This document shows positions 1 to 4,967 of a stretch of 4,967 bases of DNA, in pieces; the first letter of the stretch is position 1, and every line of letters starts with the position of its first letter. Made by a program: the position numbers and the translations under genes. The stretch is taken from IMG/VR virus record IMGVR_UViG_2740892229_000007; one strand, given 5' to 3'. The notes beneath the pieces were generated by a model, which had not been told where the DNA came from, ran no database searches, and saw only the letters and a program-made list of their open reading frames with translations. The DNA is from a virus. Lineage: Duplodnaviria; Heunggongvirae; Uroviricota; Caudoviricetes.

Positions 1-2
1 TA

Positions 3-750
3 TCCCGTATCTGCTGGGATACTGGCGGGATTGACCCGACCATTGTGTATGAACGCTCGAAAAAGCATGGGCTGTTCCGGGTGATCCCCATTAAAGGGGC
101 ATCCGTCTACGGAAAGCCGGTGGCCAGCATGCCACGTAAGCGAAACAAAAACGGGGTTTACCTTACCGAAATTGGTACGGATACCGCGAAAGAGCAGATT
201 TATAACCGCTTCACACTGACGCCGGAAGGAGATGAACCGCTTCCCGGTGCCGTTCACTTCCCGAATAACCCGGATATTTTTGATCTTACCNNNNNNNNNN
301 CGGTACGGATACCGCGAAAGAGCAGATTTATAACCGCTTCACACTGACGCCGGGAGGGGATGAACCGCTTCCCGGTGCCGTTCACTTCCCGAATAACCCG
401 GATATTTTTGATCTTACCGAAGCGCAGCAGCTGACTGCTGAAGAGCAGGTCGAAAAATGGGTGGATGGCAGGAAAAAAATACTGTGGGACAGCAAAAAGC
501 GACGCAATGAGGCGCTCGACTGCTTCGTTTATNNNNNNNNNNAAAAAAAATACTGTGGGACAGCAAAAAGCGACGCAATGAGGCGCTCGACTGCTTCGTT
601 TATGCGCTGGCGGCGCTGCGCATCAGTATTTCCCGCTGGCAGCTGGATCTCAGTGCACTGCTGGCGAGCCTGCAGGAAGAGGATGGTGCAGCAACCAACA
701 AGAAAACACTGGCAGATTACGCCCGTGCCTTATCCGGAGAGGATGAATGA
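3..750 (+). CDS. A: Terminase large subunit (lambda gpA-like), C-terminal portion; 5' end lies outside the window; coding path broken by N runs
   Basis: In-frame translation of three blocks: 3-290 (codons start at 3), 302-532, 544-750. Gives ...[174 protein letters not shown], stop TGA 748-750. Matches the lambda gpA C-terminus as I recall it. Blocks 302-418 and 543-603 are redundant re-reads. Confidence 0.85.
291..300. other. Gap: run of 10 N (block junction 1/2)
   Basis: 10 consecutive n; sequence after the gap re-reads 174-290. Confidence 0.99.
302..418 (+). repeat. Redundant near-identical re-read of 174-290 (gpA region)
   Basis: Aligned by eye; differs at gaa->gga (E->G, 225-227 vs 353-355) and gga->ggg (synonymous). 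Confidence 0.9.
533..542. other. Gap: run of 10 N (block junction 2/3)
   Basis: 10 consecutive n; sequence after the gap re-reads 472-532. Confidence 0.99.
543..603 (+). repeat. Redundant near-identical re-read of 472-532 (gpA region)
   Basis: Aligned by eye; only the first base differs (g->a, consistent with agg->aga Arg synonymous). Confidence 0.9.
736..742 (+). promoter_or_regulatory. Probable Shine-Dalgarno (GGAGAGG) for gpW, embedded in the 3' end of the terminase gene
   Basis: GGAGAGG at 736-742, 4-nt spacer to ATG 747. Spacer is short, so the call is tentative. Confidence 0.5.
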
Positions 751-3578: not shown

Positions 3579-4967
3579 TCTCCCGCATATTGCCAGCATG
3601 GCTTTTAATGAGCCGCTGATGCTTGAACCCGCCTATGCGCGGGTTTTCTTTTGTGCGCTTGCAGGCCAGCTTGGGATCAGCCGCCTGACGGATGCGGTGT
3701 CCGGCGACAGCCTGACTGCCCAGGAGGCACCCGCGACGCTGGCATTATCCGGTGATGATGACGGACCACGACAGGCCCGCAGTTATCAGGTCATGAACGG
3801 CATCNNNNNNNNNNAGTATCCGGCGACAGCCTGACTGCCGGAGAGGCACCCGCGGCGCTGGCGTTATCCGGTGATGATGACGGACCACGACAGGCCCGNN
3901 NNNNNNNNATCCGGCGACAGCCTGACTGCCGGAGAGGCACCCGCGGCGCTGGCGTTATCCGTTGATGATGACGGACCACGACAGGCCCGCAGTTATCAGG
4001 TCATGAACGGCATCGCCGTGCTNNNNNNNNNNGAGTTATCAGGTCATGAACGGCATCGCCGTGCTGCCGGTGTCCGGTACGCTGGTCAGCCGGACGCGGG
4101 CGCTGCAGCCGTATTCGGGAATGACCGGTTACAACGGCATTATCGCCCGTCTGCAACAGGCTGCCAGCGATCCGATGGTGGACGGCATTCTGCTCGATAT
4201 GGACACACCGGGCGGGATGGTGGCGGGAGCATTTGACTGTGCTGACATCATCGCCCGTGTGCGAGACATAAAACCGGTATGGGCGCTGGCCAACGACATG
4301 AACTGCAGTGCAGGTCAGCTGCTTNNNNNNNNNNGATGACCGGTTACAACGGCATTATCGCCCGTCTGCAACAGGCTGCCAGCGACCCGATGGTGGACGG
4401 CATTCTGCTCGATATGGATACGCCAGGCGGGATGGTGGCAGGGGCATTTGACTGCGCTGACATCATCGCCCGTGTGCGTGACATAAAGCCGGTATGGGCG
4501 CTGGCCAACGACATGAACTGCAGTGCAGGTCAGCTGCTTGCCAGTGCCGCCTCCCGACGTCTGGTCACGCAGACCGCACGGACAGGCTCCATCGGCGTCA
4601 TGATGGCTCACAGTAATTACGGCGCTGCGCTGGAGAAANNNNNNNNNNTGACATGAACTGCAGCGCAGGTCAGCTGCTTGCCAGTGCCTCCTCCCGGCGT
4701 CTGGTCACGCAGACCGCCCGGACAGGCTCCATCGGCGTCATGATGGCTCACAGTAATTACGGTGCTGCGCTGGAGAAACAGGGCGTGGAAATCACGCTGA
4801 TTTACAGCGGTAGCCATAAGGTGGATGGCAACCCCTACAGCCATCTACCGGATGATGTCCGGGAAACATTGCAGTCCCGGATGGATGCAACCCGCCGGAT
4901 GTTTGCACAGAAGGTGTCGGCATATACCGGCCTGTCCGTGCAGGCTGTGCTGGATACCGAGGCTGCA
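3559..4967 (+). CDS. C: Prohead protease / minor capsid protein C (lambda gpC-like, S49 SppA-type peptidase family); 3' end outside the window; interrupted by 5 N runs and redundant blocks
   Basis: GTG start at 3559, 6 nt downstream of GAGGAGG (3546-3552), overlapping the gpB 3' end by 20 nt. In-frame pieces: 3559-3804, 3816-3898, 3910-4022, 4034-4324, 4336-4638, 4650-4967. Translation (M)[53 protein letters not shown]...SYQVMNGIAVLPVSGTLVSRTRALQPYSGMTGYNGIIARLQQAASDPMVDGILLDMDTPGGMVAGAFDCADIIARVRDIKPVWALANDMNCSAGQLLASA...GSIGVMMAHSNYGAALEKQGVEITLIYSGSHKVDGNPYSHLPDDVRETLQSRMDATRRMFAQKVSAYTGLSVQAVLDTEAA. Confidence 0.9.
3805..3814. other. Gap: run of 10 N (block junction 12/13)
   Basis: 10 consecutive n; sequence after the gap re-reads 3696-3779. 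Confidence 0.99.
3815..3898 (+). repeat. 84-bp block that re-reads 3696-3779 (gpC region); second allele
   Basis: gtg->gta synonymous; cag->gga (Q->G), acg->gcg (T->A), gca->gcg synonymous. Confidence 0.9.
3899..3908. other. Gap: run of 10 N (block junction 13/14)
   Basis: 10 consecutive n; sequence after the gap re-reads 3699-3804. Confidence 0.99.
3909..4014 (+). repeat. Redundant re-read of 3699-3804 (gpC region); third allele
   Basis: As block 3815-3898 plus ggt->gtt (G->V) at 3961-3963. Confidence 0.9.
4023..4032. other. Gap: run of 10 N (block junction 14/15)
   Basis: 10 consecutive n; sequence after the gap re-reads 3990-4022. Confidence 0.99.
4033..4065 (+). repeat. Redundant re-read of 3990-4022 (gpC region)
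   Basis: 33-bp overlap, identical apart from the first base. Confidence 0.85.
4325..4334. other. Gap: run of 10 N (block junction 15/16)
   Basis: 10 consecutive n; sequence after the gap re-reads 4120-4324. Confidence 0.99.
4335..4539 (+). repeat. Redundant re-read of 4120-4324 (gpC region)
   Basis: All differences found by eye are synonymous (gat->gac, gac->gat, aca->acg, ccg->cca, gcg->gca, gga->ggg, tgt->tgc, cga->cgt, aaa->aag). Confidence 0.9.
4639..4648. other. Gap: run of 10 N (block junction 16/17)
   Basis: 10 consecutive n; sequence after the gap re-reads 4509-4638. Confidence 0.99.
4649..4778 (+). repeat. Redundant re-read of 4509-4638 (gpC region)
   Basis: agt->agc, cga->cgg, gca->gcc, ggc->ggt synonymous; gcc->tcc (A->S) at 4689-4691. 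Confidence 0.9.
4881..4967 (+). CDS. nu3: Nested in-frame start of a capsid scaffolding protein (lambda Nu3-like) inside the gpC reading frame; 3' partial
   Basis: In-frame ATG at 4881 (SRMDATRRMFAQKV...) at the position where lambda nu3 initiates inside gene C (about codon 239 of C). Call rests on known lambda gene organisation; no strong Shine-Dalgarno is visible upstream. Confidence 0.5.
   Translation, partial: MDATRRMFAQKVSAYTGLSVQAVLDTEAA

Follow-up and report, generated by a model that had tools for sequence, protein, structure and literature searches.

A lambda-type prophage contig that probably chains k = 61 assembly-graph nodes from several versions of one head-gene module

The head-morphogenesis module of phage lambda carries the genes A (terminase large subunit), W, B (portal), and C (protease/scaffold) in this order, and the part of it that concerns us here lies at positions 2086-5218 of NC_001416. 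Among 5,426 complete E. coli genomes, 3,473 have the module, with 1 to 7 locations each, and lambda's own stretch was a single-piece match in every complete E. coli genome among the matches listed. On the assembly side, the Pebble module of Velvet merges nodes that are judged to be neighbours from read pairs, with no path between them, by means of an N buffer (PMC2793427). A second product with which the present sequence can be compared is the reference-ordered pseudo-molecule, in which tools of the ABACAS or Mauve type arrange contigs along a reference, either a phage or a genome, and join them with a fixed spacer.

The window analyzed here is a stretch of 4,967 nucleotides from a Caudoviricetes record (IMGVR_UViG_2740892229_000007). 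An exact-protein look-up identified it as the entire contig CCPP01000051.1 of the NCBI assembly GCA_000752895.1, a record that DNA-pattern scans of collections of viral, metagenome, and species-representative genomes had not turned up; the literature searched yielded nothing usable on this accession. The window has the same gene order as the lambda head module, and its blocks are 96-100% identical in nucleotide sequence to lambda, phage 2H10, or Stx1a-converting phages. No biological difference separates it from that module, except that the record interleaves several copies instead of presenting one.

The initial annotation had read the window as a tiled pseudo-scaffold and not as colinear DNA, and had counted 16 N runs of exactly 10 each; both statements are borne out. 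The 16 runs, all of 10 N, divide the window into 17 blocks on one strand, with lengths of 290, 232, 408, 348, 397, 345, 82, 388, 458, 61, 239, 446, 84, 114, 292, 304, and 319 nt. When aligned separately to lambda NC_001416, all 17 blocks are colinear on 2086-5218, a region that comprises the 3' part of A, W, B, and the 5' part of C. The 4,807 block bases cover only 3,133 lambda bases, and the block starts rise monotonically, contained blocks included. Every block after a gap starts within a lambda stretch that was covered earlier; measured against the furthest earlier end, the re-read sequence at junctions 1-16 amounts to 118, 61, 112, 82, 75, 151, 136, 187, 271, 84, 118, 109, 106, 33, 205, and 130 nt. 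The implied distance between blocks is negative at every junction, where all the buffers have the same size. The reading frame, which had been described as changing at almost every junction, shifts at all 16. Three blocks (2081-2162, 3039-3099, and 3815-3898) lie wholly within neighbouring blocks, as had been noted, and a further one (3909-4022) is covered by its neighbours taken together. An independent repeat search of the window returned the same 15 direct-repeat families and found no inverted repeats.

All blocks are on the plus strand. Block 1 (positions 1-290, lambda 2086-2375) is an internal part of gene A, the terminase large subunit; it is the first node, printed in full, and ends 60 nt past the variant column at 230. 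At the base preceding this block, the natural panel is polymorphic (G/A, 14 versus 13), as in a normal unitig start after convergence. Beyond the spacer at 291-300, block 2 (301-532, lambda 2258-2489) remains in A and overlaps block 1 by 118 nt, with 115 of 117 positions identical; its first base falls on a variant column and its end at variant + 60. The spacer at 533-542 is followed by block 3 (543-950, lambda 2429-2836), whose overlap with block 2 consists of a differing first base and exactly 60 identical nucleotides. Block 3 contains the end of A (stop codon at 748-750) and W from 747, which is cut 3 nt ahead of its stop codon by the spacer at 951-960. The 3' part of W (to 1075) recurs in block 4 (961-1308, lambda 2725-3072), together with the start of the portal gene B (ATG at 1072).

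Portal gene B continues after the spacer at 1309-1318 in block 5 (1319-1715, lambda 2991-3387) and, after that at 1716-1725, in block 6 (1726-2070, lambda 3313-3657). The latter is nearest to lambda and phage 2H10, with 3 mismatches to each and 9 to the Stx1 phage. Following the spacer at 2071-2080, block 7 (2081-2162, lambda 3507-3588) provides an alternative version of a segment wholly inside block 6; it differs from block 6 at 4 positions and from block 8 at 1, and is identical to the Stx1a-converting phage Stx1_8100 and to two IMG/VR prophages. Block 8 (2173-2560, lambda 3522-3909), which follows the spacer at 2163-2172, has a divergence-type end, directly ahead of a variant column. Across the spacer at 2561-2570, block 9 (2571-3028, lambda 3723-4180) has a 187-nt overlap with block 8 in which 9 positions differ, and its full length, first base included, is identical to a gut-metagenome contig (L067). 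Block 10 (3039-3099, lambda 3910-3970), after the spacer at 3029-3038, is a 61-nt piece inside block 9 that consists of one SNP base (T versus C) and 60 identical nucleotides; the natural panel has C 29 times and T 31 times at this column. The last block wholly within B is block 11 (3110-3348, lambda 4097-4335), which is preceded by the spacer at 3100-3109 and has its overlap with block 9 rather than with block 10 directly before it.

Block 12 (3359-3804, lambda 4218-4663) comes after the spacer at 3349-3358 and contains the end of B (stop codon at 3576-3578) and the start of C (3559); it is nearest to lambda, with 4 mismatches versus 10 to 2H10 and 10 to the Stx1 phage. The spacer at 3805-3814 leads to block 13 (3815-3898, lambda 4555-4638), an alternative version of sequence in block 12 (6 differences) that is identical to phage 2H10. 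Past the spacer at 3899-3908, block 14 (3909-4022, lambda 4558-4671) is a third version of this segment, 1 difference from block 13 and 6 from block 12. The remaining blocks belong to C, which encodes the S49 peptidase/scaffold. Block 15 (4033-4324, lambda 4639-4930), after the spacer at 4023-4032, is nearest to 2H10 and the Stx1 phage, with 1 mismatch to each and 10 to lambda. Block 16 (4335-4638, lambda 4726-5029), after the spacer at 4325-4334, overlaps it by 205 nt with 9 differences and carries a version of which a 51-nt stretch is exact in 57 IMG/VR prophage contigs. Block 17 (4649-4967, lambda 4900-5218), after the spacer at 4639-4648, runs on in C past the end of the contig.

The range of 33-205 bp that had been given for the sequence re-read after each gap holds for the path-extending blocks. 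The idea that the blocks merely re-read what came before does not, as the overlaps are 92.8-100% identical and 65 of the 1,470 multiply covered columns are discordant. Codon position 3 accounts for 51 of these 65 columns, and the discordant alleles are also present in natural prophages. The overlapping segments are different alleles or copies, not one sequence read twice. Because blocks 6, 7, and 8 as well as blocks 12, 13, and 14 are all pairwise different, at least three versions are present, each near another natural lineage (lambda-like, 2H10-like, Stx1-phage-like, or gut-metagenome-like). The odd first base of the blocks was also considered as noise or as an off-by-one in the alignment segments. 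This reading was rejected, since in 15 of the 16 post-gap blocks the first base stands on a column that is polymorphic in natural prophages, and it is further contradicted by block 9, which with its leading T is exact in 8 gut-metagenome contigs.

The block boundaries follow a rule that corresponds to k = 61. Post-gap starts lie on a variant column in 16 of 16 cases, against a background of 8.8% (P about 2e-15), and 14 of the 16 pre-gap ends lie at variant + 60, the remaining two (blocks 8 and 13) being just ahead of a variant. No other boundary-to-variant offset within ±70 exceeds 8 of 16. The longest exact word common to any two blocks is 60, a value reached in 8 of the 20 overlapping pairs; in a null of 5,000 natural haplotype-pair draws, none held every overlap at or below 60. 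The smallest block, block 10 with its 61 nt, corresponds at k = 61 to the alternative arm of a bubble with one SNP. In the absence of any shared k-mer, in the fixed offsets of their boundaries, and in this bubble arm size, the blocks behave as nodes of one k = 61 de Bruijn graph. The first 60 nt are missing from the post-gap blocks alone, the prefix of block 1 being present. A reading of the blocks as single long reads of 454-like length was rejected on account of the one-sided artefact, the single strand, and the k = 61 boundaries.

We compared these boundaries with k = 61 unitigs simulated from sets of 2-5 natural haplotypes. In about 100% of cases, the first k-mer of a single-copy unitig has the variant at its final base, and the unitig ends at variant + 60; the simulated geometry equals the observed boundaries after trimming of 60 nt at the 5' end. 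However, the raw unitigs are shorter than the blocks (median of 61-87 nt versus 304 nt), and extra simplification such as bubble merging must thus be assumed. The divergence-type ends of blocks 8 and 13 are likewise unexpected for a strictly single-copy unitig and count against the k = 61 node account. The simulation supports the mechanism only qualitatively, in that the boundary types are matched and the block lengths are not.

Taken as a whole, the window is very probably an assembly artefact in which k = 61 graph nodes from at least three lambda-type A-W-B-C versions were chained by the read-pair scaffolder of the assembler. The sample would have held at least three versions of the module that lie a few percent apart, and several lambdoid prophages within a single Escherichia coli isolate are their most likely source. 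At k = 61, a short-read de Bruijn assembler would have been unable to thread these versions, and the graph would then have broken into version-specific nodes, each extending from one variant site to another. Read pairs would have linked the nodes and, since all nodes cover one locus, the paired-read scaffolder would have estimated distances of zero or below. Where no unambiguous path was available, the nodes would be joined in their estimated order with a minimum buffer of 10 N, and those after a buffer would be printed minus their first k-1 = 60 bases, so that each post-gap block starts on its distinguishing variant.

The loss of the prefix from post-gap blocks only points to the assembler's own scaffolding, of a Velvet-like kind, rather than to reference-ordered contigs. 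The window is similar to Velvet (Pebble) scaffolds over unresolved repeats or allelic bubbles in its k-mer-disjoint nodes (k = 61), its constant spacer, presumably of minimum size, and its whole first block followed by 16 of 16 blocks that lack the k-1 prefix, whereas its blocks are longer than raw unitigs. Velvet presumably prints gaps under 10 as 10 N and removes the first k-1 bases of appended nodes; these behaviours would match the spacers and the missing 60-nt prefixes, respectively. Support for either rule was not found in the literature searched, in which only the general N-buffer behaviour of Pebble is citable. From these features we infer a Velvet-like assembler and read pairs as the ordering principle. 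A metagenome origin through metaSPAdes, with an 'artificial gap' of 10, is disfavoured, as the source is a genome-type NCBI assembly; k = 61 is not known to be a SPAdes default.

The initial annotation had instead suggested contigs ordered against a reference. On this reading, separately output contigs would have been placed along a phage or genome and joined with a 10-N spacer, and the constant spacer, the single orientation, and block starts that rise strictly with the reference coordinate even for contained blocks are what such pseudo-molecules share with the window. Yet in stand-alone contigs the k-1 prefix would be retained and the two ends would be symmetric, in contrast to the one-sided 60-nt loss at the 5' end of all 16 post-gap blocks, with block 1 intact. 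Moreover, pieces of 61, 82, 84, and 114 nt are under any usual contig output or submission length, and the scaffold spans 3.1 kb only, stopping mid-gene in A and in C without following the reference further. We regard reference ordering as quite unlikely, and this part of the earlier interpretation is not retained. A different question is whether the same artefact drew its variants from a mixed or contaminated culture, or from a population in which more than one E. coli strain or phage was present. The presence of at least three versions, each near a different natural lineage, would fit such a source, and sequence alone cannot tell whether the copies sat in one genome or in different cells. 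However, the record is a genome-type assembly with a GCA accession, and complete E. coli genomes often hold several copies of the module, up to 7, so no mixture is needed. A mixed source is rather unlikely, and several prophages in one isolate are the origin that we favour.

Read literally, the record would describe a lambda-like prophage in which partial tandem duplication occurred 16 times in succession, with about 10 unsequenced bases at each junction, and the slight differences between the copies are what old duplications would show. Against this, none of the 16 junction adjacencies has a match in 68 natural loci (633 kb in total), and in each of the 80 phage records that reach 80% coverage or more, the 17 pieces fall on a single stretch of roughly 3,133 nt. 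Of 63 further natural relatives, 58 align gap-free to lambda and 5 have 1-2 small gaps. In addition, an essential head gene is thrown out of frame at each junction, the copies differ by natural alleles that cluster at third codon positions, and the boundaries obey a k-mer rule at variant sites, which biology would not produce. As far as evidence from the bases themselves can reach, the real-duplication reading is refuted, and the chance that the arrangement exists in a molecule appears negligible; the earlier view that the repeats are no real architecture is upheld. We consider it just as extremely improbable that the window is a real, heavily rearranged prophage remnant with diverged partial duplications of the terminase, portal, and protease genes, or that the k-mer-like boundaries reflect a biological process at the variant sites, for example closely spaced recombination junctions that arose between co-resident prophages and were captured in one molecule.

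Once the chained nodes are collapsed onto one path, the reading frames of the genes are gap-free and intact. Between the collapsed tiling and lambda there are 67-73 differences over 3,133 positions, and the 3' part of A, W, B, and the 5' part of C contain no internal stops and have 0-8 amino-acid changes each. In the contig as deposited, 15 false gene fragments are called, with Pfam matches to GpA_nuclease, gpW, Phage_portal_2, and Peptidase_S49. The expectation that gene callers would fragment A, B, and C is confirmed, and W is affected as well.

The window is an ordinary lambda head module overlain by an artefact and, in itself, has no biological importance. In the public record CCPP01000051.1, several near-identical prophage copies would appear as one 5-kb contig; its 15 false gene fragments are now in protein collections, and scans for repeats, pseudogenes, or frameshifts will wrongly flag it. 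The boundary rule offers a reference-free filter for such scaffolds, namely post-gap starts on a variant, ends at variant + (k-1), and no shared k-mer. Biologically, the contig amounts to a single ordinary, colinear 3.1-kb stretch of lambda-like head genes that is present in several copies. The record further hints at an isolate with three or more lambdoid prophages whose head modules are 93-99% identical, as is common in E. coli.

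Sixteen runs of exactly 10 N divide the window into 17 blocks of 61–458 nt, numbered here 5′ to 3′. A megablast search of phage records placed 17 of 17 pieces on a single ~3,133-nt stretch in 80 lambda-like phages, with 98% identity. Aligned block by block to phage lambda (NC_001416), as the initial annotation had proposed, the blocks tile lambda 2086–5218, which comprises the 3′ part of A (terminase large subunit), W between A and B, B (portal), and the 5′ two-thirds of C (S49 peptidase/scaffold). All blocks share one strand, and their lambda starts climb monotonically (2086, 2258, 2429, 2725, 2991, and 3313 for blocks 1–6; 3507, 3522, 3723, 3910, 4097, and 4218 for blocks 7–12; 4555, 4558, 4639, 4726, and 4900 for blocks 13–17). 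Merging by lambda coordinate gave 3,133 nt with no hole, in which W, B, and the covered parts of A and C contained no internal stops and differed from lambda by 0–8 amino acids, so the genes beneath the artefact are intact. The biological content is a standard lambda head-gene module.

Pairwise block alignment revealed that every block after a gap opens within sequence already present upstream. A repeat search of the window recovered the same overlaps as 15 direct-repeat families and found no inverted repeats. The overlaps of 33–205 nt described earlier were borne out in lambda coordinates for path-extending blocks, and blocks 7, 10, and 13 indeed lie wholly within their neighbors, while block 14 is also covered by the union of its neighbors. 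The reading frame, said to change at almost every junction, changed offset at 16 of 16. However, the overlaps are not the identical re-reading that had been assumed; they are only 92.8–100% identical, with 65 discordant columns among the 1,470 covered by more than one block.

Of these discordant sites, 51 of 65 occupy third codon positions. Five blocks are exact matches to one or more of the 63 haplotypes in a natural panel. Block 7 (window 2081–2162) is identical to the Stx1a-converting phage Stx1_8100, block 9, including its first base, has exact matches in gut-metagenome contigs, and a 51-nt stretch of block 16 matches 57 IMG/VR prophage contigs exactly. The nearest lineage is lambda for block 12 (window 3359–3804) and phage 2H10 for blocks 13–15 (window 3815–4324). 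The overlap differences reflect distinct versions of the module rather than errors. Since blocks 6, 7, and 8 all differ pairwise, as do blocks 12, 13, and 14, at least three versions were present in the sample. A possible host is an E. coli strain carrying several lambdoid prophages, perhaps one that produces Shiga toxin.

Over its full length (window 2571–3028), block 9 is identical to the human-gut metagenome contig L067. At window 543, block 3 opens with A, compared with G in 41 of 41 natural haplotypes covering the column, which extends an A7 run to A8; no other block start carries an allele unseen in the natural panel, and this base may be a rare allele or stem from a read-error tip. Blocks 1, 4, 6, 8, 12, and 16 lie 3–4 mismatches from the nearest of 39–61 natural haplotypes and may be consensus chimeras from assembler bubble merging, copying no real version exactly.

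The block boundaries were compared with the natural panel registered to lambda coordinates, in which variable columns form an 8.8% background. All 16 post-gap starts fall exactly on a variable column (chance P of at least 15/16, ~2e-15). Likewise, 14 of 16 pre-gap ends lie exactly 60 nt past a variable column and the remaining two directly precede such a column; across ±70 nt, 8/16 was the most that any other offset reached. Discordance among the window's own blocks marks 16/16 start columns and 13/16 end-minus-60 columns. Despite overlaps of up to 205 nt, the longest exact word common to any two blocks is 60 nt, a length reached by 8 of 20 overlapping pairs, and no draw of natural haplotype pairs, out of 5,000 covering the corresponding intervals, held all overlaps to 60 or less. 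Block 10, the smallest (61 nt), consists of one SNP base and 60 identical bases and is a single-SNP bubble arm at k = 61. Together, these properties are those of nodes from one de Bruijn graph built with k = 61.

In such a graph, no k-mer occurs in more than one node, and a node stops where version-specific k-mers join shared ones. At k = 61, the first variant of a version-specific unitig should lie 60 nt in from its start, and the last variant 60 nt short of its end. The block ends fit this expectation, apart from two of the divergence type, whereas every post-gap block begins 60 nt too "late," with the variant as its opening base. The start of block 1 is normal, one base past a G/A polymorphic site of the panel. 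Simulated k = 61 unitigs from 2–5 natural haplotypes bore out this geometry: in essentially all single-copy unitigs, the variant closed the first k-mer and the end lay at variant +60. The window therefore corresponds to a first node in full followed by nodes lacking their k−1 prefix. As the blocks have a median length of 304 nt versus 61–87 nt for raw simulated unitigs, bubble merging or read threading before scaffolding must be assumed, which would also explain why many blocks are 2–4 bases off the nearest natural haplotype.

Thus, a sample with at least three near-identical module versions would yield version-specific nodes in the k = 61 graph, of which the first would be written in full and later ones without their first k−1 bases, each preceded by 10 N. 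A Velvet node stores a single base per k-mer, the last, so that appended nodes lose the k−1 prefix, and gaps estimated at less than 10 are written as 10 N. Both behaviors would fit the post-gap starts and spacers of the window, and we infer that the assembler was Velvet-like. Nodes covering one locus in different copies would receive negative estimated distances, which would account for a spacer that stays at its minimum and for blocks that run in positional order. In Velvet's Pebble module, neighboring nodes linked by read pairs without a found path are merged using a buffer of Ns (PMC2793427).

The initial annotation correctly recognized a tiled pseudo-scaffold with no real repeat architecture; its proposed cause, contigs ordered against a reference, does not fit the boundaries, which follow k = 61. 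Reference-guided ordering accounts for the block order and fixed spacer but leaves unexplained the one-sided 60-nt truncation of post-gap blocks only, the pieces of 61–114 nt, and a scaffold that spans just 3.1 kb and breaks off within genes A and C, and is improbable. The odds are far slimmer still, practically nil, for genuine partial duplications arrayed in tandem: a search of 68 natural loci found none of the 16 junction adjacencies, related loci are colinear (of 63 fetched, 58 were gap-free against lambda and five had only 1–2 small gaps), the frame shifts at every junction, and the boundaries obey the k-mer rule. The five gapped relatives, in an otherwise indel-free 3.1-kb region, are L004, L005, L040, L049, and L066; one natural-panel row has an N. 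As for the source of the versions, a mixed culture is rather unlikely; several prophages in one genome are favored by the record type (genome assembly GCA_000752895.1) and the commonness of multi-copy genomes.

An exact-protein look-up traced the window to that NCBI assembly, where it makes up the whole of contig CCPP01000051.1 (4,967 nt), with sequence identity confirmed. As predicted, gene callers obtain only fragments from the window as written, and 15 coding fragments are called on this contig. Some cross N spacers into a different frame, such as a 166-residue product from window 1072, and the fragment products stand in public protein collections as though real proteins.

The block array is not a real feature; short-read scaffolding is known to produce this kind of artefact where near-identical prophage regions occur in several copies. 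This analysis yields a warning flag on a public record with 15 false gene fragments, as well as a simple reference-free signature to recognize such scaffolds. Among 5,426 complete E. coli genomes, 3,473 carry the lambda A-W-B-C segment (2086–5218), at 5,539 places in total (26 on plasmids). With 1 to 7 places in each of these, several versions could readily come from a single isolate, and the segment is a very common cause of collapsed assemblies.
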